Shown piece after piece: positions 17,562 to 28,395 of a DNA stretch of 64,000 nucleotides. The position numbers were made by a program, and so were the translations under genes. Origin of the DNA: Desulfobacterales bacterium (GTDB lineage Bacteria > Desulfobacterota > Desulfobacteria > Desulfobacterales > SURF-7). Every line of letters starts with the position of its first letter. The first letter of the stretch is position 1. Where the stretch lies: positions 2,787 to 66,786 of the forward strand of contig JAWOIJ010000024.1 in the NCBI GenBank assembly GCA_046484745.1. Direction: 5' to 3'. The notes beneath the pieces were generated by a model. That model was not told the origin of the DNA. It ran no database searches and was given only the letters and a program-made list of their open reading frames with translations.

Positions 17562-19001
17562 ATGAAAAAACCGAAACAATTGTCCAGAAAATTTACAACG
17601 CTTCTGATTTATGGTCGCCCTCCCCTTGCTTTTGCCGGGATGATTTGTGCAATCGGGGTTATGTTGACGCGGAATCCGATTTTTTATCTGATCGGGGTAT
17701 CGTGTCTTTTTATCTCCATGACATTCGACCTGGTGGATGGTTGGTTTGCAGCACGTTTTCAACCGAACAGCGCCCTGGCTCATCTGGCGGATCGGATCAT
17801 GGACAAAATTGTTTACTCGATCATCTTCCCGCTGCTTGCGACAGGAATGATGTGGCGAATGCTTTTTATCTCGCCAGGCTTCGTAAAGATCGAGCTTTTA
17901 CATGCTTTGTTTGTGTTGTTTTTATGTGTTACCGTTCTGGTTCGCGATAATTTTGCCTCTTTTATGCGTGGATTTGCCGTCAGAAGAGGCCATGAACCCG
18001 AATCGAGTGAATTTACACGGTTGCGAACCATTGTCGCAGCACCCCTCAGCGCGCTTTTATATGCGCATGCATTTTATCTGCCCGATGGACCGACCTTAAA
18101 ACTGTATTCCTGGATAACCTGGCTCGGCAACATTCCTGTCCGAGGATTTTTTATTCTTGAAATCATCTTTTTGATAATCAACTTCGGTTCCATTGCACGA
18201 TATTGCCGGAGGTACGGCTCTTATTGTCTTGACGAACTCTGTCTTGAAGATGAACAGCTTAGAAAAAAAATCCTTTCCATTTTCCCCAATGCGCTTACCG
18301 TGATGAATGCAATGATGGGACTTCTGGCTGTCTTTTTCGCATACCAGGACAGGATAAAAGAGGCCTATCTGATTATGATCGGTGCCGCCATATTTGATAA
18401 GCTTGACGGCGCAATGGCAAGAAAACTCGGATTGGCGGAGTCCGCTCCCATATCGGAAGGAAAGCACCGGATTACATTTGGCGGCATTATGGATGATATC
18501 GCAGATACCGTAAGCTTCTGTATTGCACCGGCATGGATTTATTATATTTGTCTTTCCGATGTTTCGAACCGGCTTCCGGTGGGGATTATCGCAGTTATTT
18601 ACGCTGTATTTGGCGTTGCACGATTAATCTATTTCACACTGGATAAAACACCGATCCCCGGATATTTTAAAGGTATGCCGACGCCTGCCGCCGCTCTTTT
18701 TGTCACCTCGCCCCTGATCATATTATCCCAGGAACTGGCAGCGAACTCTGAATATGTAATTTTCTGGTATTTCTTTTGTTCGGGTTTGATGATCCTGGCA
18801 GCAATACTGATGAATTTATTCCCGGCAAAATACATCCATGTAGGGCGCTTTATGGACAGAAACCCCTGGTTTGGCCGGATTGATCTGCCTTTGGTTTTTC
18901 TCTTTGCGTTTACACCTTATCTTGGGTATTTTGCTCTGATTCAACTGTTTCTTTACGCGATCTCCCCTTTATGGACAAGAGTTAAAAAACCGGAAAATTA
19001 G
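17562..19001 (+). CDS. Two-domain CDP-alcohol phosphatidyltransferase (PgsA-like + PssA-like)
   Basis: Two DxxDGxxA(R)...DxxxD motifs (DLVDGWFAAR..DRIMD; DKLDGAMAR..DDIAD); PssA-like FKGMPTPAAA. Confidence 0.8.
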   Translation: MKKPKQLSRKFTTLLIYGRPPLAFAGMICAIGVMLTRNPIFYLIGVSCLFISMTFDLVDGWFAARFQPNSALAHLADRIMDKIVYSIIFPLLATGMMWRMLFISPGFVKIELLHALFVLFLCVTVLVRDNFASFMRGFAVRRGHEPESSEFTRLRTIVAAPLSALLYAHAFYLPDGPTLKLYSWITWLGNIPVRGFFILEIIFLIINFGSIARYCRRYGSYCLDELCLEDEQLRKKILSIFPNALTVMNAMMGLLAVFFAYQDRIKEAYLIMIGAAIFDKLDGAMARKLGLAESAPISEGKHRITFGGIMDDIADTVSFCIAPAWIYYICLSDVSNRLPVGIIAVIYAVFGVARLIYFTLDKTPIPGYFKGMPTPAAALFVTSPLIILSQELAANSEYVIFWYFFCSGLMILAAILMNLFPAKYIHVGRFMDRNPWFGRIDLPLVFLFAFTPYLGYFALIQLFLYAISPLWTRVKKPEN

Positions 19002-19162
19002 ATTCCCGGTACTCCTGTCTTATCCGCTTCATTCAGAGGAGATTGAAAACCGGCGGTTGCTTGCCGCTGCTATTCATTCGTTTCAATGAGATCGCCACGT
19101 CGATCCCTGATGGAACATTCAACGATAACGTTTTCTATGCTTATGAATTGTTATGAAAGGAG

Positions 19163-19555
19163 ATGGATATGGATAACAGACATCGGATCGTTCTATACAT
19201 TTTATTTGTTGCTCTTGCACTCGTTTTACAGGGAAATATAGCCTTTGCCGGCAAATCTTCAGTTCAAATCGAAGTTCCGGAATCTGCTGCCGTGGGAGAA
19301 GTAATTTTGATCCAGCTTCATGTATCCCATGAAGGAAACAACTTGTTTCATTATACGGATTGGGTTTACGTGACGATTAATGGAAGCGAGGTCAAAAGGT
19401 GGACGTTCAGTAATTTTGACAAACCTGAATCAGAACATTTCACACGGACGATTAATCATACGATGAACGGCCCCATCAGGATTACAGCCGAATCTGACTG
19501 TAACATACACGGCAGTACAGGTGTTGTTGAAAAAAATGTGGCGATTAAGAAATAG
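19163..19555 (+). CDS. Exported desulfoferrodoxin/superoxide reductase-like protein
   Basis: Signal peptide ending AFA; HVSH..HYTDW..CNIHG resembles the SOR iron site. Confidence 0.65.
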   Translation: MDMDNRHRIVLYILFVALALVLQGNIAFAGKSSVQIEVPESAAVGEVILIQLHVSHEGNNLFHYTDWVYVTINGSEVKRWTFSNFDKPESEHFTRTINHTMNGPIRITAESDCNIHGSTGVVEKNVAIKK

Positions 19556-19563
19556 GTGATTTC

Positions 19564-19749
19564 ATGAAAATCGGAGGTGTTTCTATCCAGCTGATCACAG
19601 GGATTCTGAATGGTCTGCTGGTTCTCTTTCAGGCAGGCTCGGGATTGGGTTATTTTAAAGTTTCGTTCAGCGTGCACCGGAAAACAGGCATCGCTCTGCT
19701 GTTCACGGCAATGATCCATGCCTTTTTTGCGCTATTTGCCCATTCGTAG
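19564..19749 (+). CDS. Small two-helix membrane protein with H-x13-H
   Basis: 61 aa, 8 nt after the SOR-like gene; H38 and H52 on one helix. Confidence 0.6.
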   Translation: MKIGGVSIQLITGILNGLLVLFQAGSGLGYFKVSFSVHRKTGIALLFTAMIHAFFALFAHS

Positions 19750-20013
19750 GCCGGTTCGAACACATATCATTCCGCATTTTTCCGGTCAATCAAGGAATGA
19801 AAAGAATCATACTCGCGGGTCGCCGCCTGCTGTGCAGACTTGCGAACCGAATCCATTTCATAAAAATTTCTTTTCAACGATATGCTGCTTCGCAGCGCTA
19901 AACCGATGAAATTAAAATATGGAAAATAACTTGACACGGGTTGAAGTTTATTATAGAGGTTTCGCAAGTCTATCAAATTACATTAGAGATCAACTTATTT
20001 TATTTATTTTATT

Positions 20014-20100
20014 ATGATGAACATATTCTCAGGCAGCTTTAGCTATTCTTATTTCTGGTGGTACTATTTTATCACCGGTCTGCCTGGCTGTACGCGCTGA
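20014..20100 (+). CDS. Putative attenuator leader peptide MMNIFSGSFSYSYFWWYYFITGLPGCTR
   Basis: 28 codons, 10 aromatic (4F, 4Y, 2W), directly upstream of terminators and the aro operon; weak SD. Confidence 0.85.
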   Translation: MMNIFSGSFSYSYFWWYYFITGLPGCTR

Positions 20101-20125
20101 TTCATAAGAAACATATAAAGCAAAC

Positions 20126-20161
20126 AAAGCCGTGAGCAGAACCAAAATTCACGGCTTTTTT
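20126..20161 (+). terminator. Attenuator terminator hairpin 1
   Basis: aaagccgtga...tcacggcttt followed by further T residues. Confidence 0.7.
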
Positions 20162-20165
20162 AATT

Positions 20166-20201
20166 GGGGCCGTGAAAATCGTTTTCACGGCCCTTTTTTT
20201 T
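20166..20201 (+). terminator. Attenuator terminator hairpin 2
   Basis: gggccgtgaaaa-tcg-ttttcacggccc followed by T8. Confidence 0.85.
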
Positions 20202-20231
20202 ACTTTCTATAACAAAAGGGAGAACAGTGCC

Positions 20232-21032
20232 ATGACAATCCTCGGGAAAAAAATCAGAATGGAAAGAATTATTAATCGGAATACACGCAAAACCGTGATT
20301 GTTCCAATGGATCACGGAATTTCAGTCGGACCGATACCAGGCGTGATTGACATGAAAAGTGCGGTTCAAAACGTCGCTGAGGGAGGAGCAAACGCGATTG
20401 TCGAACATAAAGGCCTTGTGGGTGAAGGCCATCGCGGGCAGGGAAATGATATCGGGCTGATCATTCATCTCTCCGCATCAACCAATTTGTCACCCTACCC
20501 TCACGCGAAAACGCTTGTCTGCTCGGTAGAGGAAGCCATCAAGCTCGGTGCGGATGCGATATCGATTCATATCAATCTGGGAAACGGGCAGGAGAAAGAG
20601 ATGCTTAAGGATTTTGGCAGAGTCAGCTACGAAGCAAGAACCTGGGGAATGCCGCTTCTCGCGATGATATACCCGCGTGGCGAGAAAATTACAGACGAAT
20701 ATCATGTGGATGTCATCAAACATGCGGCAAGGGTTGGTAACGAAATGGGTGCGGACATTGTAAAGGTCTCCTATACGGGAAGCCCGGAGTCTTTCCGCAA
20801 GGTAGTCGAAGGATGTTCCATACCGGTCGTAATCGCTGGGGGTGCAAAAATGGATTCCGATCAGGAAATTCTTGAAATGGTAAAGGGTTCGATAGAGGCA
20901 GGCGGTGCGGGTGTTTCTATCGGTCGAAATGTTTTTCAGCATGAAAACCCGAAAAAAATGGTTAAAGCCATCTCCTCCATTGTACATGGAGGAAAAAGTG
21001 TAGCTGAAGCGCTTGATATTCTAAGCAGCTGA
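20232..21032 (+). CDS. 2-amino-3,7-dideoxy-D-threo-hept-6-ulosonate synthase (class I aldolase, DhnA family)
   Basis: [31 protein letters not shown]; directly precedes DHQ synthase II; start at MTILGK (SD GGGAG). Confidence 0.88.
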
Positions 21033-21150: not shown

Positions 21151-22143
21151 ATGCGTAAGATCTGGGTTAAAGTTGATCCGTGGAATAAAAAACTGGTTAC
21201 AACCGCACTTGAAGGTGGAGCAGACGCAATCATGGTTCCGAAAGGCTATTCCAGACAGGTTAAAGAACTGGGAAGGATTACAACCATCTCGGACGATGGC
21301 GATTTGAAGCCGGATCAGGATGTTGTGTTCTTTACCATAAAAAGCGGAAAAGATGAAGAAGAGATCTTAAAGCTTTGCCAGAGCAAGAAAGTTATTTTAC
21401 ACTGCACAGACTGGACGATCATTCCCCTTGAAAACCTGATTGCAAAAGGAGCGGAAGTGATTGCGCAGGTTCAGAATCTTGAAGAAGCACAGACGGCATT
21501 TGGCATTCTGGAAAAAGGGGTGAGCCATATTCTCTTTCATACACAGAATCCAATTGAGTTGAAACGATCTCTTTCCAGGCTTCTTGAAGAAGGAGAAACA
21601 ACCGCCCTTCAACATGCCGAGGTCATTGAGATTGTTCCGGTAGGCATGGGTGACCGTGTTTGCGTGGATACCTGCACTTCGATGTCAATTGGAGAAGGAA
21701 TGCTTGTCGGTAACAGCAGCAGCGCGCTTTTTCTGATTCATTCGGAAAGTATTTCAAACCCATATGTATCTCCTAGACCCTTCCGGGTCAATGCCGGAGC
21801 GGTTCATGCCTATACCAGGGTTCCCGGCGGAAAAACACGGTATCTTTCCGAACTGTCTGCAGGAGACCAGATTCTCATTACGGATTTTAAAGGAAAAACA
21901 AGTACAGGAATCGTCGGAAGGTTAAAAATTGAAAAACGTCCCATGATGCTCCTCAAAGCCAAAATTGGTGATCATGTCGCGACAACGATCCTTCAAAATG
22001 CGGAGACAATCAGGTTGACCGACCCATCCGGAAAGCCGGTATCTGTTGTCTCCCTGAAACCCGGGGACAAAATATTAGCGGCATTGGAGGAAGGCGGGCG
22101 ACATTTTGGCTATAAAATCGATGAAACAATCACTGAAAAATAA
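21151..22143 (+). CDS. 3-dehydroquinate synthase II (archaeal type)
   Basis: DWTIIPLENLIA, GDRVCVDT, RPFRVNAGAVHAY, LQNAETIRL, GRHFG. Confidence 0.93.
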   Translation: MRKIWVKVDPWNKKLVTTALEGGADAIMVPKGYSRQVKELGRITTISDDGDLKPDQDVVFFTIKSGKDEEEILKLCQSKKVILHCTDWTIIPLENLIAKGAEVIAQVQNLEEAQTAFGILEKGVSHILFHTQNPIELKRSLSRLLEEGETTALQHAEVIEIVPVGMGDRVCVDTCTSMSIGEGMLVGNSSSALFLIHSESISNPYVSPRPFRVNAGAVHAYTRVPGGKTRYLSELSAGDQILITDFKGKTSTGIVGRLKIEKRPMMLLKAKIGDHVATTILQNAETIRLTDPSGKPVSVVSLKPGDKILAALEEGGRHFGYKIDETITEK

Positions 22144-22155
22144 CGTGGAGAAAAG

Positions 22156-23265
22156 ATGACCGGAGAGAAAAAAAATATTGCCGGGATGGCCGCAGATTCC
22201 ATTGAATCTCTTATAAATTCAATAAATTTGATTGACAATCAACTGCTGAACCTGATCAATAAGCGGGTTGAATTCGTGCTGAAGATGGGGGCGCTGCAAC
22301 AAGAAACAAATGTGGAAACCCTCCTTCATTCTGATGAAGAAAGATCGATAAGGCGGCTTTTGGAAGTGAATTCCGGTCCCCTTGATCCAAAAAAAATACG
22401 AACGTTGTTTAAAAATATATTTTCCCTGTCACAAGAGGCTATCAAGCCTCGACGCATTTCTTACCTGGGACCGGAAGCAACCTTTACTCATATCGCGGCC
22501 ATCAATCATTTTGGAGACTCAGCCTCGTTTCTGCCGCAACCCGGTATCCGGGATGTGTTTCTTGAAGTGGAAAAAGAAAGATGTGATTTCGGAGTGGTTC
22601 CGGTTGAAAATTCAATTGAAGGATCTGTAAATTATACCCTGGACCTGTTTTTTGAATCCAACTTGAAAATTTGTGCTGAAAAATACCTGACCATTTCCCA
22701 TGATCTGCTTTCCAAATCTAAAAAACCGGATGAAATAAAAGTTGTTTATTCTCACCCCCAGCCAATCGCCCAGTGCCGCGGATGGCTTCGCAAGAATATA
22801 CCGAATGCGAGAATTGAGGAATGCAAAAGCACTTCCTTTGCGGCACAAAAGGTTGTCGACATTCAAAATGCGGCGGCAATCGCAAGCAGCGAGGCAGCAA
22901 GAATCTATCATTTGAACGTCGTGGCTTCCCGGATTGAGGACCATCCCAACAACACAACCCGTTTTCTGATTATCGGAAAAAATGAAACCCCCCGGACTGG
23001 AGATGACAAAACATCCATCATGTTTGCAGCAGCTCATGTTCCCGGGTCTCTTTACAAAACACTGGAACCCATCGCGAAATCCGGAATCAATATGTTGAAA
23101 CTGGAGTCAAGGCCCAGCAAACATGAAAACTGGAGTTATTTTTTCTTTGTAGACCTTGAAGGACATATGGATGACACAAAAATACAGGATACAATTTCAA
23201 AAATGAAAAAGCTTTGCCTTTTTTTGAAAATTCTTGGATCCTATCCAAAATCAATCGACATGTAA
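22156..23265 (+). CDS. pheA: Chorismate mutase/prephenate dehydratase (CM domain degenerate)
   Basis: YLGPEATFTH, PVENSIEGSV, NTTRF, ACT domain KLESRP, LGSYP. Confidence 0.92.
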   Translation: MTGEKKNIAGMAADSIESLINSINLIDNQLLNLINKRVEFVLKMGALQQETNVETLLHSDEERSIRRLLEVNSGPLDPKKIRTLFKNIFSLSQEAIKPRRISYLGPEATFTHIAAINHFGDSASFLPQPGIRDVFLEVEKERCDFGVVPVENSIEGSVNYTLDLFFESNLKICAEKYLTISHDLLSKSKKPDEIKVVYSHPQPIAQCRGWLRKNIPNARIEECKSTSFAAQKVVDIQNAAAIASSEAARIYHLNVVASRIEDHPNNTTRFLIIGKNETPRTGDDKTSIMFAAAHVPGSLYKTLEPIAKSGINMLKLESRPSKHENWSYFFFVDLEGHMDDTKIQDTISKMKKLCLFLKILGSYPKSIDM

Positions 23266-23318
23266 GACGATTTTCAAACAACAATTTGCAACTTAGCGTT
23301 AACAGGAATAAATTTCAC

Positions 23319-24128
23319 ATGAAAATAGATACAACAACTTCCCTCTTTGGTGTTATCGGAGATCCGGTCGCACACAGTTTAAGTCCGGTCATGCATAACA
23401 GAGCCTTTTCCGAGATCGGGTATAACGCTATCTACCTGGCCTTTCATGTCACCGATCTCGCATCGGCGATCAAAGGTGTAAAGGGACTCGGGATAAAAGG
23501 TCTCAGCGTAACCATACCGCACAAGGTGTCGATCATGAGCTTGTTGGATGAGATCGATGAAATGGCTGAAAAGATCGGTGCGGTCAATACGGTTGTGAAC
23601 AAGAGCGGAAAGCTCTTTGGATATAATACAGACTGTCTTGGCGCTATCCATGCGCTTCGAGAAAAAACCGATATCAAAAATAAAAATATTTTAATGATCG
23701 GCGCAGGAGGTGCTGCCCGGGCCATTGGTTTCGGAATTTTATCAGAAGGCGGGAATCTCACCATTATCAATATTTTAGAAGATGAGGGAAAGGCGCTGTC
23801 TGAAATCCTTGGAGTCCCCTATTATCATCTTTCTGAATTCCGCGGCTTTGAATATGATATCCTGATCAACACCACGCCTGTTGGAATGTCTCCCAGGATG
23901 AATAAAATGCCGGTAGAGCCGATCGACCTGAGACCCGACAAGGTAGTGATGGATATCATTTATAACCCCTTAAAGACAATGCTCATGGCAGAGGCTGAAA
24001 AAATCGGATGTTCTACCGTAGATGGTGTTTCCATGTTTGTACACCAGGGCGCGGCGCAATTTGAAATGTGGACAGGAAAAAAAGCACCTGTTGAAATTAT
24101 GCGGCATACGGTATTAAATGAACTATAG
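23319..24128 (+). CDS. aroE: Shikimate dehydrogenase
   Basis: HSLSPVMHN, SVTIPHK, GAVNT, NTD, GAGGAA; start at MKIDTT. Confidence 0.95.
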   Translation: MKIDTTTSLFGVIGDPVAHSLSPVMHNRAFSEIGYNAIYLAFHVTDLASAIKGVKGLGIKGLSVTIPHKVSIMSLLDEIDEMAEKIGAVNTVVNKSGKLFGYNTDCLGAIHALREKTDIKNKNILMIGAGGAARAIGFGILSEGGNLTIINILEDEGKALSEILGVPYYHLSEFRGFEYDILINTTPVGMSPRMNKMPVEPIDLRPDKVVMDIIYNPLKTMLMAEAEKIGCSTVDGVSMFVHQGAAQFEMWTGKKAPVEIMRHTVLNEL

Positions 24129-24221
24129 GAAAGGATCTTCCTGAAATAAAAACAGTCGCAAGAATTTTAATCTGTTGTTTTATAAGGGAACCCCGGGCAT
24201 GAAATCTAACTGGATTTTACG

Positions 24222-25484
24222 ATGATCGAAATTAAAAATGGAAAAATTAAGAATTCGGACATAACCGTTCCGGGTTCTAAAAGTTATACGCATCGTCTCC
24301 TGATTGCGGCAGCGCTCTCAGACGGCATATGTTTCATCGAAAATATGCTCAAAAGCGAAGATACCCTTTTCACGTTGAAAGCATTAAATCAGATGGGTAT
24401 TCAAACCGAGGATTCCGGCAACCTGCTTAAAATCGAGGGTTCGGCAGGGAACTTGAAACCATGCTCCGATCCCATATATCTCGGAAACTCGGGGACCTCC
24501 ATGAGGCTTTTGACAGGGGTTGCCGTGCTTGGGAAAGGAACCTACTCCCTCACGGGCACCAAAAGGATGGGAGAACGTCCCATCGGTGACCTCCTGGAAG
24601 GATTGAGCCAGGTCGGTGTAAACGCGAAATCCATCAATGGGAATGGCTGCCCTCCGGTTGAAATCCGCGGCGGAAACCGTTCAGGTGGAAAGGTTAATCT
24701 CAAGTGCCATATCAGCAGTCAATACCTCTCTTCGCTTCTTCTGATTGCACCATGCTTGGAGAATGGCCTTGAAATAAACGTAACAAAAGGCCCTGTTTCC
24801 AAACCATACATTGATATGACAATTGACATTATGAACCGGCTCGGTGTGGAACTGGAGCGCCAAGGCTACACATATTATAAAATTCCCGGCAACCAGAATT
24901 ACCAGCCGGGAAAATATACGGTTGAACCGGACTGCTCACAGGCAGGTTATTTCTGGGCTGCTGCTGCAATCACCGGCGCGACCATTAAAGTGAACGGCGT
25001 GACAAAAAACTCCCGCCAGGGCGATATCGGATTCGCGGATGTTCTTGAAAAAATGGGATGCACCGTAATCTACGAGAACGATGGGATTACGGTTACCGGT
25101 GGAGAACTGTTCGGCATCGAAGTTGATATGTCCAATATGCCGGATATCGTTCCAACCCTATCCGTTGTGGCTGCCTTTGCAAAAGGAAAAACGATAATTC
25201 AAAATGTTGCCCACCTGAAGGAAAAGGAAAGCGACCGGATCGGATCTGTTGCAAAGGAGTTGAATAAAATGGGGATCGATGCAAAAGCCGGTGAAAGCGG
25301 TCTGGTTATCACGGGGGGCACTCCCAGAGGCGCGGAAATTGAAACGTATGATGATCACCGGATGGCGATGAGCTTTTCAGTAGCAGGACTTGTTGTCCCG
25401 AAAGTACATATCAAAAATGAGGGTTGCGTTGACAAGTCATTCCCCAATTACTGGGAGGTTTTTGGAGGGCTCTATCAATCATGA
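24222..25484 (+). CDS. aroA: EPSP synthase
   Basis: PGSKSYTHR, GNSGTSMR, SSQYLS, KESDR, DDHRMAM, KSFP. Confidence 0.96.
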   Translation: MIEIKNGKIKNSDITVPGSKSYTHRLLIAAALSDGICFIENMLKSEDTLFTLKALNQMGIQTEDSGNLLKIEGSAGNLKPCSDPIYLGNSGTSMRLLTGVAVLGKGTYSLTGTKRMGERPIGDLLEGLSQVGVNAKSINGNGCPPVEIRGGNRSGGKVNLKCHISSQYLSSLLLIAPCLENGLEINVTKGPVSKPYIDMTIDIMNRLGVELERQGYTYYKIPGNQNYQPGKYTVEPDCSQAGYFWAAAAITGATIKVNGVTKNSRQGDIGFADVLEKMGCTVIYENDGITVTGGELFGIEVDMSNMPDIVPTLSVVAAFAKGKTIIQNVAHLKEKESDRIGSVAKELNKMGIDAKAGESGLVITGGTPRGAEIETYDDHRMAMSFSVAGLVVPKVHIKNEGCVDKSFPNYWEVFGGLYQS

Positions 25485-26002
25485 ACATTTATCTCATCGG
25501 GTATCGTTGTACCGGGAAAACAACTGTAGGAAAGATTCTCGCCGGAAAACTCGGGTGGCCGGTTATGGATTCAGATATCGAGCTTGTACATGAAGAGGGA
25601 CGTCCCATATCTGAAATTGTAGAGAGTCAGGGATGGGAGGCATTCCGAAGTATTGAAAAAAACGTAATTCAAAAGCTCAGCTTGCTGGATCATCATGTGA
25701 TTGCAACCGGAGGCGGTGCCGTGTTGAATGGCGAGAATGTCAGCACGATGAAAAAAAGTGGAAAACTGGTATGGCTCAAGGCAACGCCTGAAACCATACA
25801 CAGAAGAATGACCATGGACTGCGAGACCGAAAAATCAAGACCGGCACTGACGGACAAGGGGGTTTTCGGGGAGATAGAAGAAACGCTGAACATCCGAAAT
25901 CCCATTTATCAGGCAGCCATGGATATTGCCATTGATACGGATCAGCTGACGCCTGAAGATATTTGCAGCATTATCCAGGAAAAGCTGACAGGTGAACCAT
26001 GA
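25481..26002 (+). CDS. aroK: Shikimate kinase
   Basis: GYRCTGKTT P-loop, FRSIE, ATGGG, RP. Confidence 0.92.
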   Translation: MNIYLIGYRCTGKTTVGKILAGKLGWPVMDSDIELVHEEGRPISEIVESQGWEAFRSIEKNVIQKLSLLDHHVIATGGGAVLNGENVSTMKKSGKLVWLKATPETIHRRMTMDCETEKSRPALTDKGVFGEIEETLNIRNPIYQAAMDIAIDTDQLTPEDICSIIQEKLTGEP

Positions 26003-26023
26003 TCTGCCCGAAAAGGAGAGGCT

Positions 26024-27076
26024 ATGCCCGGTAACACCTTTGGAAAATTATTCAGGATAACAACCTTTGGAGAATCTCATGGAAAGGCTGTTGGTGTCGT
26101 AATTGACGGCTGCCCTCCAAAGATCCCTCTTGACGAGCAGATCGTTCAAACAATGCTTGATCAAAGACGTCCGGGTAGATCCATTGCAAGTACAACCCGA
26201 AAAGAACAGGATCAGGCGGAGATCCTGTCAGGGATATTTGAAAACAGGACAACCGGAACACCCATAACAATCCTGGTAAAAAACAAGGATGCCGACTCAT
26301 CATCCTATCAGGGCATCGCAGATTTATTTAGACCCGGGCATGGTGATTTTACCTATCAGGCAAAATATGGAATCCGTGACTTTCGAGGAGGAGGACGCGC
26401 CTCTGCTCGTGAAACGGTTGCACGGGTGGCCGCCGGTGCAGTTGCCGGGGCTGTTCTATCAAAAATCGGGACAGAGGTCTCAGCCTATACGATAGAACTT
26501 GGAGGTATAAAAGCCCGAAAGCGTGATGCCGATGAGATCACAAACAACATGTTCTGCTGTCCGGATTCCGTCGCAGCCGGGAAAATGGAACACCGTATAA
26601 ACGAAGTTCGCAAGATGGGGAACTCCGTTGGCGGTATTGTTGAAATTATCGCAAAAGGTGTTCCGAAAGGGCTGGGAGATCCTGTTTTTGACAAACTGGA
26701 TGCAGGTCTTGCCGGAGCATTGATGAGCATAGGGGCTGTAAAAGGTGTTGAGATCGGAGCGGGTTTTCGTGCTGCCGGCATGCTCGGATCTGAAAACAAC
26801 GATCCGATTACACCAGAGGGATTTGAAACAAACCATTCAGGAGGCATTCTGGCGGGTATTTCAAACGGAGATCATATCGTCATCCGTGTGGCGGTAAAAC
26901 CCATACCCTCTATAGCCATTGATCAAAAAACGGTTGATCGTTTTAACAAACCGAAAACGGTTTCAATACAAGGAAGACATGACATATCCGCAATTCCCAG
27001 AATAAATGTCGTCTGCAAAGCCATGGTTCAACTTGTGCTTGTCGATCATTTACTCCGGCAGAATGCGATTTCATGA
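26024..27076 (+). CDS. aroC: Chorismate synthase
   Basis: [38 protein letters not shown]. Confidence 0.97.
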
Positions 27077-27174
27077 AAAAGTTGCCGGTTCTGATCGCAG
27101 ACGATCCAAGTCGTGCAATTCTTTTTCCTTCAAACAGGTATCGATACCATCAGACTCAAACATAGTTGTATCAC

Positions 27175-28395
27175 ATGATGTCAGATTTATTTTTAGAAAA
27201 CTCATTGTCAAAAACAGATGTATATGTTGCGAAAGGGGATACTCCCTATGGCAACACCCGCAAGGTATTGTCCCAGATGGACCTTTCTTTTTTTAAAAAA
27301 AAGAAAGTCCTGCTGAAACCGAATGTCGGAAGAATCGCACCTGTCGGGAAAGGCATCACCACGGATCCGATGGTAGTCGCAGCCGCAATAGATTTTTTTC
27401 GTGAAAATGACGCGGATGTCGCTATCGGTGAAAGCCCGATCGTAGGTGTCGATACAATGGCGGCATTTCGTTCCGCAGGAATCGAAACGATCGCAAAAAA
27501 GCGTAACTGCAAATTGATTGATTTGAATGTGGGAAAATATGTCACAATGCCCGCGCCTGATGGAAAAGCGATCCAGGAGTTCAAGGTTTGCCATCCGGTT
27601 TTTGAATATGATTGTATCGTATCCATCCCCGTTATGAAAATGCATATGCACACATGCGTGTCGCTGTCGATCAAAAACATGAAAGGCTGCCTGTGGCGGC
27701 GCAGCAAGGTTGACCTGCATATGCTGCCTCCGGTCGAAGGCATGGATGAAAAACCGATAGATGTTGCCATTGCGGATATGGCGGGTGTTCTGCGGCCACA
27801 TTTGGCAATCATCGATGGCACGGTTGGAATGGAAGGATTGGGACCGAGTGCCGGCACGGCAAAACCTCTTGGCGTAGTTGTCGCCGGCATTGATTCTTTT
27901 GCGGCAGATGCCGTTGCCTGCAGGCTGATGGGAACCAGCGCGGAAAAAGTTCCTCATTTACGAATGGGCGCGGAACGCAATTATGGAATTATTGACATTG
28001 CCAGGCTGTCCATAACACCTGAAGGATGGGAAGACTGGTCTTCTCCATTCTCCCCGCCGCCGGAGAACTTGTCCATCGAGTTCCCGAATATCAGGGTTCA
28101 TGACAGAAATTCATGCAGTGCCTGCCAATCGACGCTGCTTCTCTTCCTGAAACGATACAGAACAAAAATACTCGACTACTTTCCTCAAGACACAATCATC
28201 AATTTCGCCATTGGCAAAGGGCATGATGGTATTCCCGAAAACACAATTTGCATCGGCAACTGTACAAATGACATTCGACAAAACAGAACCTTCATAAAAG
28301 GCTGCCCTCCTGTTGCCAGTGAAATCATGCGCGGGATAACCGGGAAAGCCTCGATTGATGTTCTGGATGGTAAGATTGAAATCCCTGATGATTGA
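27175..28395 (+). CDS. DUF362 family protein with C-terminal Cys motifs (probable Fe-S)
   Basis: VLLKPN, PVMKMH, SIKNMKG, DG..GMEGLGP; CSAC, CIGNC, GCPP. Confidence 0.8.
   Translation: MMSDLFLENSLSKTDVYVAKGDTPYGNTRKVLSQMDLSFFKKKKVLLKPNVGRIAPVGKGITTDPMVVAAAIDFFRENDADVAIGESPIVGVDTMAAFRSAGIETIAKKRNCKLIDLNVGKYVTMPAPDGKAIQEFKVCHPVFEYDCIVSIPVMKMHMHTCVSLSIKNMKGCLWRRSKVDLHMLPPVEGMDEKPIDVAIADMAGVLRPHLAIIDGTVGMEGLGPSAGTAKPLGVVVAGIDSFAADAVACRLMGTSAEKVPHLRMGAERNYGIIDIARLSITPEGWEDWSSPFSPPPENLSIEFPNIRVHDRNSCSACQSTLLLFLKRYRTKILDYFPQDTIINFAIGKGHDGIPENTICIGNCTNDIRQNRTFIKGCPPVASEIMRGITGKASIDVLDGKIEIPDD

Follow-up and report, generated by a model that had tools for sequence, protein, structure and literature searches.

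The leader and the shikimate operon

The window, by which we mean the whole 64,000-nucleotide stretch of Desulfobacterales DNA analyzed here, carries on its forward strand a putative operon for making chorismate and phenylalanine, headed by an aromatic-rich sORF. This leader comprises 28 codons plus TGA (20014–20100, with the ATG at 20014 and the TGA at 20098–20100); its frame was confirmed, and the predicted product, MMNIFSGSFSYSYFWWYYFITGLPGCTR, begins MMNIFSGSFSYSYFWWYYF. Ten of the 28 residues are aromatic, nine of them falling within the 11 residues from position 9 to position 19. Read from the sequence, the control codons in this run (20038–20070) specify F S Y S Y F W W Y Y F, the aromatic ones being, in order, TTT, TAT, TAT, TTC, TGG, TGG, TAC, TAT, and TTT.

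A gap of 131 nt separates the leader stop from the ATG (20232) of the first structural gene, which together with its SD (AAGGGAGA, 20216–20223) occupies 20216–21032. Its product matches the ADH synthase equivalog TIGR01949 at 364.5 bits against a cut-off of 299, and the second gene passes the NCBIfam equivalog for 3-dehydroquinate synthase II (DHQS II). The remainder of the operon (21151–27076, forward strand) was assigned with Pfam, supplemented by NCBIfam for DHQS II, and comprises DHQS II, CM/PDT/ACT (pheA), aroE, aroA, aroK, and aroC. The full gene order is thus DeoC-family aldolase, DHQS II, CM/PDT/ACT, shikimate DH, EPSP synthase, shikimate kinase, and chorismate synthase. We infer operon continuity solely from the common strand and the short gaps. 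After chorismate synthase comes a DUF362 gene on the same strand (27166–28395). Upstream, also on the same strand (19163–19749), are an ORF of 130 amino acids with a desulfoferrodoxin domain and a family-less ORF of 61 amino acids, which end about 180 nt before the promoter of the leader. A preliminary description of this region had given the ORF coordinates, the 10 aromatic residues in 28, the 131-nt gap, and the presence of terminators downstream, all of which were reproduced; the domain matches likewise agree with the chorismate and phenylalanine operon proposed there.

The genome, estimated to be 95% complete, encodes two ADH synthase paralogues. No DAHP synthase was found in it: the sole PF00793 match is a KDO8P synthase, and PF01474 has no match. 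A search for the N-terminal domain of prephenate dehydrogenase (PF02153) was likewise negative; the enzyme may be encoded in sequence missing from the assembly or come from a different family.

Conservation of the leader

Aromatic-rich sORFs are common in this organism. A six-frame scan of the 4.3-Mb genome returned 416 sORFs of up to 60 amino acids with at least six aromatic residues in 10, and six with at least eight in 10. The best-scoring other candidate, on contig C32 with 10 aromatic residues in 10, was rejected as a chance occurrence, having neither a terminator nor a gene behind it. The aromatic run by itself is therefore within chance, and the reality of the feature rests on its conservation. 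The abundance of such sORFs is what speaks for regarding the leader as a chance ORF followed by two hairpins that are ordinary terminators of the upstream gene, a reading to which we assign a vanishingly small probability given the conservation across order and phylum described here and the promoter and pairing evidence set out below.

An alignment of the regions upstream of ADH synthase orthologues had been proposed as a check on the leader, and it bore the leader out, with an aromatic sORF in all 29 order-level loci and in 31 of 60 phylum-level regions. At the level of the order, a search of 61 related genomes for ADH synthase gave 30 loci, from which one (L023, with 71 nt upstream) was excluded. 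At each of the remaining loci, an aromatic-rich sORF occupies the same position in frame and ends 115–361 nt before the ADH synthase gene; 27 of the 29 reach an aromatic score of 7 or more over 10 residues. The consensus of these leaders is approximately M..FSG.FYYFYFWYYYFSTGLPG(V/C)(V/M)R.

We then considered named public records, taking the best 80, all from Desulfobacterales and mostly MAGs, with titles that include Desulfonema magnum, Desulfosudis oleivorans, Desulfocicer vacuolatum, and Desulfatirhabdium butyrativorans. Upstream sequence of 300 nt or more is available for 76 of these. A score of 7 or higher is reached by 68 of the 76, or by 67 once L087, which is a W/R repeat instead of a leader, is set aside. 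Four records score 6, and another (L065) scores 5 yet clearly has a leader; in three of the 76 (L085, L097, and L103), no leader was seen. The reverse complements of the same regions, used as a control, reach a score of 7 in 4 of 76 cases. The named records partly overlap the first 30 loci, and the de-duplicated total is 85 distinct leaders, none of which contains an in-frame stop in the frame picked by score.

Across Desulfobacterota, ADH synthase was detected at E ≤ 1e-60 in 96 of 301 sampled genomes, and 60 upstream regions were hand-chosen to spread over families. By eye, 31 of these were judged to hold a candidate aromatic leader, and in the other 29 hand-chosen regions none was seen. The flanks of the aromatic run are often quite different in these leaders (e.g., ...YFYYFWYYWFRRGLPTIS, ...FYFSYYYFTGPGVRLDF, and ...GYWFYFYYWAGGSAHG). 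At least one terminator-like hairpin follows each of the 31 eye-picked leaders, usually with a GCCGUGG/CCACGGC stem.

Promoter and ribosome binding site

A likely sigma-70-type promoter lies on the forward strand at 19931–19957, with a −35 element (TTGACA, 19931–19936) and an A/T-rich −10-like element at approximately 19949–19957. A consensus promoter scan made no call at 19931–19957 because the spacer is short. The CTTGACA upstream of the leader aligns in most of 26 relatives, and a conserved promoter between the upstream gene and the sORF argues against hairpins that merely terminate that upstream gene. In a metagenome contig of a relative (X2), 434 other letters replace 39 nt at 19878–19918, just upstream of the promoter.

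No SD adjoins the leader ATG in the window. A 17-nt AT-rich insert, missing in the two closest relatives (L002 and L003), parts an AGAGA motif from the ATG and accounts for the lack of a nearby SD; the caveat of the preliminary description that no strong SD is present therefore holds for the window. In most relatives, purine-rich SD-like motifs lie 6–11 nt before the start codon, as judged by eye and without a count. The AT-rich 17-nt stretch sits at 19995–20013, and contig X2 is without 9 nt at 19995. This spot differs between strains, shifting the SD-like AGAGA off the start codon.

Two mutually exclusive RNA folds

The RNA from 19990 to 20235 folds with a z-score of −4.59, and none of 200 shuffled sequences folds as well. 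Two intrinsic terminators follow the leader: T1 (AAAGCCGUGAG...UUCACGGCUUU, about 20126–20158, with a U6 run) and T2 (20166–20194, with a U8 run). For comparative analysis, we used an alignment (A1) of the 29 order-level loci, reaching 90 nt upstream and 118 nt downstream of the leader stop, in the coding part of which all gap lengths are multiples of three. Within this region, six segments can be arranged into two mutually exclusive folds, one forming both terminators and the other two antiterminators.

Segment 0 (CAGGCAG, codons 6–8, 20030–20036) pairs with segment 1 as a predicted anti-antiterminator; the 0:1 helix (A1 columns 35–41:88–94) is 89.7% paired, with changes on both sides in three of seven pairs. 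Segment 1 (GGTCTGCCTG, equivalent to GGUCUGCCUG; codons G-L-P-G, 20077–20086) can pair with either segment 0 or segment 2. Segment 2 (AAAGCCGTGAGCAGAAC, 20126–20142) spans the 5′ arm of T1 and the start of its loop, and its GCAGAAC pairs with segment 1 to give antiterminator 1; this 1:2 helix (A1 columns 85–91:146–152) is 91.4% paired, with five of seven pairs altered on both sides. Segment 3 (20148–20161) consists of the 3′ arm of T1 (20148–20158) and its U run (20156–20161) and has segment 4 as an alternative partner, in a predicted hairpin at 20148–20176 whose 3:4 helix is 97.5% paired in A1. Segments 4 and 5, delineated by hairpin prediction and pairing in A1, are the 5′ arm of T2 (20166–20178) and its 3′ arm with the U8 run (20182–20193 and 20194–20201, together 20182–20201). 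The T2 helix is 97.7% paired in A1 and has changed on both sides in four of nine pairs.

Taken as a whole, the terminator fold (0:1 + 2:3 + 4:5) is 93.1% paired over 809 cells, compared with 32–53% when slid, and 13 of its 28 pairs change on both sides. The antiterminator fold (1:2 + 3:4) is 94.5% paired, compared with 33–50% when slid, and 7 of its 14 pairs change on both sides. For either fold, 0 of 500 shuffles equal the observed pairing, a figure that is not a probability and that overstates support because the sequences are related and thus not independent. That the alternative pairings covary argues further against the sORF being a chance ORF. One extra hairpin across the stop codon (A1 columns 102–106:129–133) was rejected, being 65.5% paired and matched by 28 of 500 shuffles.

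Median helix energies across the alignment are −10.6 (0:1), −13.6 (1:2), −18.9 (T1), −14.9 (3:4), and −17.8 kcal/mol (T2); the corresponding values in the window are −10.6, −11.9, −13.9, −11.9, and −17.7 kcal/mol. The predicted equilibrium fold retains both terminators. Since the terminators are the more stable helices, a decision in favor of antitermination would have to be kinetic, as in classical attenuators.

The covariation also bears on how the peptide sequence should be read. Within segment 1, third codon positions are kept, and P-to-S (CCT-to-TCT) and CCT-to-CCC changes are matched in segment 0, which indicates that the constraint on segment 1 is mainly at the RNA level. The peptide motifs FSG and GLPG thus appear to reflect, for the most part, the presence of segments 0 and 1. 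This weakens the case for a TnaC-like arrest, in which the ribosome would be stalled by the peptide it is making, acting jointly with a ligand such as a free aromatic amino acid, and the C-terminal G-L-P-G would be the arrest motif. The strong conservation of the peptide tail (...TGLPG(V/C)(V/M)R) would fit such an arrest; however, the conservation extends to synonymous third positions, the compensated changes allow RNA pairing to account for the motif, and the tails are unrelated in leaders from other families of the phylum. We therefore regard peptide-mediated arrest as very improbable.

The same chassis at other operons

A regular expression for the double-terminator chassis finds two places only in the 4.3-Mb genome: the shikimate operon and trpE. 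The second place lies outside the window on contig C96 (about 23760–24099, minus strand), where a leader containing three Trp codons (M..NQTGNIISQYWWWQAYLKELACGT, reading ...SQYWWWQAY...) is followed by the double-terminator chassis and then by trpE.

To extend this comparison, we used a covariance model (R1) of 140 positions from segment 1 to T2. In its own genome, R1 scores 122.8 bits at the aro site, 55.4 bits at the trp site, and 26.6 bits at a second aro site; weak matches on contigs C32, C53, C105, and C18 were discarded as plain terminators at gene ends. R1 also gives 39.9 bits on the antisense strand of the window at 20114–20232 (G000:C16:22901–23019). The hairpins are near-palindromic, with A and U runs on both sides, and could terminate transcription from the other direction as well.

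At E ≤ 0.001, 146 of the 151 genomes sampled from the order contain an R1 match, with one to eight matches each, a proportion that is an upper bound for aro leaders, as R1 also catches trp leaders. Twenty further R1 matches were hand-picked, being either second matches in a genome or matches in genomes without ADH synthase. Sixteen of these precede TrpE (anthranilate synthase I) and one precedes TrpD, and the leaders before these genes all contain W runs (WWW, WWRW, or WCW). Two others are aromatic-mix leaders, MQTSWGRYYFYFWYYFNTGLPGVR and MNNFSGNYYFYYW..., located before an AroFGH-type DAHP synthase in genomes G020 and G018; the two partial DAHP synthase proteins match TIGR00034 at 393.6 and 291.1 bits, and a search with the ADH synthase of the window as query found no ADH synthase in either genome. 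The last of the 20 is an aromatic leader before a gene of unassigned product. The leader before the DAHP synthase of G018 (L237, contig C7) seems to end early (MNNFSGNYYFYYWLL and then a stop codon), and farther along a GLPEVR-type sequence stands in another frame; the record may contain either a frameshift or a sequencing error here.

The contrast between the TrpE/TrpD and the DAHP synthase matches implies that control codons track the operon product. Judged from these sequences, the aromatic-mix leader goes with the step that opens the pathway, whichever enzyme performs it. The preliminary description had linked the leader specifically to ADH synthase, reasoning that a shared leader makes sense where this enzyme replaces feedback-regulated DAHP synthase isozymes. 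Because the same leader and chassis occur before an AroFGH-type DAHP synthase in G020 and G018, that specific link is unsupported.

Comparison across operons also informs a reading in which a trans factor sets the switch, for example a protein (TRAP-like) or an uncharged tRNA (T-box-like), and the sORF is an untranslated by-product of a U/A-rich structured leader. The weak SD in the window would suit such a factor. Against it stand the lack of any T-box or other Rfam match at E values up to 10, the restriction of indels to threes with the reading frame kept, and the placement on one RNA chassis of WWW before trp and of an F/Y/W mix before aro. We give this reading a slim chance, on a par with that of peptide-mediated arrest.

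The second aro site belongs to the second ADH synthase paralogue (L031; C2:61688–62470, minus strand), which is 60% identical to the first. Its gene is followed by a second CM/PDT/ACT gene (chorismate mutase/prephenate dehydratase) and by a response-regulator gene. The leader of this operon, MMNSRGKKLQATCFEYFSFFSWNCGLDGGD (C2:62595–62687, minus strand), is Phe-rich and has a single terminator, leader and terminator together spanning C2:62539–62687; the 5′ arm of the terminator can pair with the 3′ end of the leader. Comparable operons with a Phe-rich leader occur in 13 of 20 relatives, with leaders containing four to seven F, one to four Y, and zero or one W.

Codon composition and the amino acids sensed

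All 85 unique Desulfobacterales leaders contain both F and Y, and 66 contain W, leaving 19 leaders without W. The mean content per leader is 4.7 Y, 3.6 F, and 0.9 W, and the control codons in the set are TAT (340), TTT (281), TGG (75), TAC (56), and TTC (24). With W in 66 of 85 leaders at a mean of 0.9, Trp appears to be the weakest input and is sometimes missing altogether.

The preliminary description had proposed that one leader integrates the charging of all three aromatic tRNAs. Such integration of Phe, Tyr, and Trp charging may plausibly take place. Alternatively, the element might be a real attenuator that responds to one or two amino acids (Phe and/or Tyr), with the Trp codons adding little and no integration of three inputs. 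The scarcity of W relative to Y and F points that way, as does the separate WWW leader that the genome maintains for its trp operon. A precedent is the one analogue studied by experiment, the aroR leader of Corynebacterium glutamicum (Phe-Tyr-Phe), which, as reviewed in PMC11802643, answers Phe limitation and not Tyr availability. On the other hand, one or more TGG codons persist within the run in 66 of the 85 leaders, the window has two that are adjacent, and TGG, as a single-codon family, would be costly to retain by chance in a U/A-rich run. The Phe-dominated leaders of the Phe-branch paralogue further indicate that composition is tuned to each operon. We consider a switch limited to Phe and/or Tyr a real possibility, albeit on the unlikely side.

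Proposed mechanism

Together, these observations lead us to propose, with considerable confidence, that the element is a leader-peptide (ribosome-mediated) transcription attenuator for the entry step of the shikimate pathway. The locus has the components found in this class: an sORF with a run of end-product codons upstream of a biosynthetic operon, an intrinsic terminator (here two) between the sORF and the first structural gene, and an exclusive antiterminator with an upstream competing helix, along with a presumed ribosome-footprint geometry. The proposal further supposes translation of the sORF, stalling of the ribosome, kinetically earlier formation of the antiterminators, and particular amino acids as the relevant inputs. 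The attenuator on a shikimate and phenylalanine operon put forward in the preliminary description thus stands in its conserved sORF, its two terminators, and its covarying alternative pairings; the part of the proposal left unsupported is the rationale specific to ADH synthase.

In the proposed attenuator, the promoter near 19931–19957 would drive a leader transcript in which the run of Tyr, Phe, and Trp codons would lie between the complementary segments 0 and 1. When charged tRNA is plentiful, the ribosome would reach the stop codon or be absent; with segment 1 covered or bound by segment 0, T1 (2:3) would form and end transcription, and T2 (4:5) would catch polymerases that escape T1. When charged tRNA-Tyr, tRNA-Phe, or tRNA-Trp is scarce, the ribosome would stall within the aromatic run and keep segment 0 from segment 1. 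Segment 1 could then capture segment 2, leaving segment 3 free for segment 4, so that neither terminator would form and the operon would be transcribed. Such a switch would shut the aromatic pathway off when Phe, Tyr, and Trp are plentiful. In the window, the stop codon lies 12 nt past the core of segment 1, and the rear edge of a terminating ribosome would therefore cover segment 1 only partly; the model consequently leans on the 0:1 helix re-forming.

Public sequencing data offer a limited view of the transcript. No run contained half of the sampled words, and two RNA runs reached fractions of 0.07 and 0.04, as contigs only. One metatranscriptome contig of 177 nt (X19) spans 20137–20312, from the 3′ arm of T1 through T2 into the gene; DNA carry-over is possible for this contig, which shows neither transcript ends nor levels.

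Relation to known systems

An Rfam scan of the window from 19000 to 21000, at E values up to 10, gave 13 sub-threshold, unrelated matches, among which were no leader family and no T-box; the leader families in question we take to be the Trp, Phe, His, Leu, and Thr leaders. Searches of the leader peptides against Pfam and NCBIfam at E values up to 10 likewise returned no families. In architecture, the element resembles trpL, pheL, and hisL of Escherichia coli: there, too, a short ORF has a run of the regulating codons, an intrinsic terminator is present, and the antiterminator and anti-antiterminator helices exclude one another. The his leader alternates between A:B, C:D, and E:F on the one hand and B:C and D:E on the other, and the six-segment layout described here (0:1, 2:3, and 4:5 versus 1:2 and 3:4) matches that topology. 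In contrast to these three leaders, to which it has no Rfam, Pfam, or NCBIfam similarity, the present element mixes control codons for three amino acids, carries them in the loop between segments 0 and 1 and not inside segment 1, and has in most relatives a middle hairpin that, with its U run, is a terminator in its own right, which results in two coupled terminators.

One functional parallel in the literature is C. glutamicum aroR, a Phe-Tyr-Phe leader before aroF (Neshat et al. 2014, as reviewed in PMC11802643). According to that review, aroR responds to Phe limitation, and it likewise is a mixed-aromatic leader, acting by attenuation on the gene that opens the common aromatic pathway. Compared by description, aroR has three control residues and no Trp, whereas the run here is 9–10 long and usually includes Trp; the elements also differ in phylum, in the entry enzyme (here ADH synthase as well as DAHP synthase), and in the tandem terminators. 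A second parallel is the uORFC-13-1 motif before aroF in Acholeplasma, for which PMC8632094 describes a predicted uORF with Phe codon(s). That uORF also adjoins a terminator and precedes a shikimate entry gene, although, by its description, it requires at least one Phe residue only and comes from a different lineage.

Within the phylum, one sentence in a 2010 paper states that Desulfobacterium autotrophicum "potentially" uses pheL (PMC3082878), which may be the same element or its Phe-rich paralogue; that passage is silent on sequence, structure, distribution, and any reading of mixed codons. The literature searched yielded no fuller description of the element; predictions for delta-proteobacteria are possible in Lopatovskaya 2010 (Mol Biol), and Rodionov 2004 (PMC545781) does not mention aromatic attenuators. 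The earlier statement that no characterization of such a leader was known is therefore in agreement with the literature searched, apart from that single sentence on a possible pheL in D. autotrophicum (PMC3082878). What sets the element apart is its long run mixing Tyr, Phe, and Trp codons, its pair of coupled terminators, and a chassis that it shares with the trp leaders and with a Phe-rich paralogue.

Implications for aromatic amino acid regulation

We tentatively entertain a broader view, for which the chances are short of even: that Desulfobacterota possess a modular GCCGUG/CACGGC double-terminator chassis in which the control-codon cassette is swapped between operons (WWW for trp, Phe-rich for the second ADH synthase–pheA operon, and Tyr/Phe/Trp for the main operon), the mixed leader being a true three-input sensor of aromatic tRNA charging. 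In E. coli, the isozymes AroF, AroG, and AroH are controlled by feedback and repression. If the broader view is true, the mixed and paralogue leaders would do at the RNA level what these isozymes do in E. coli.

For annotation, the element represents a candidate new RNA or leader family absent from Rfam. How sulfate reducers regulate the synthesis of their aromatic amino acids has essentially not been described, and the same goes for control of the archaeal-type ADH synthase/DHQS II route in bacteria. The element described here provides a concrete switch together with a natural series, in which one RNA chassis carries different control codons, and it raises the question of whether one leader may weigh three amino acids at once.
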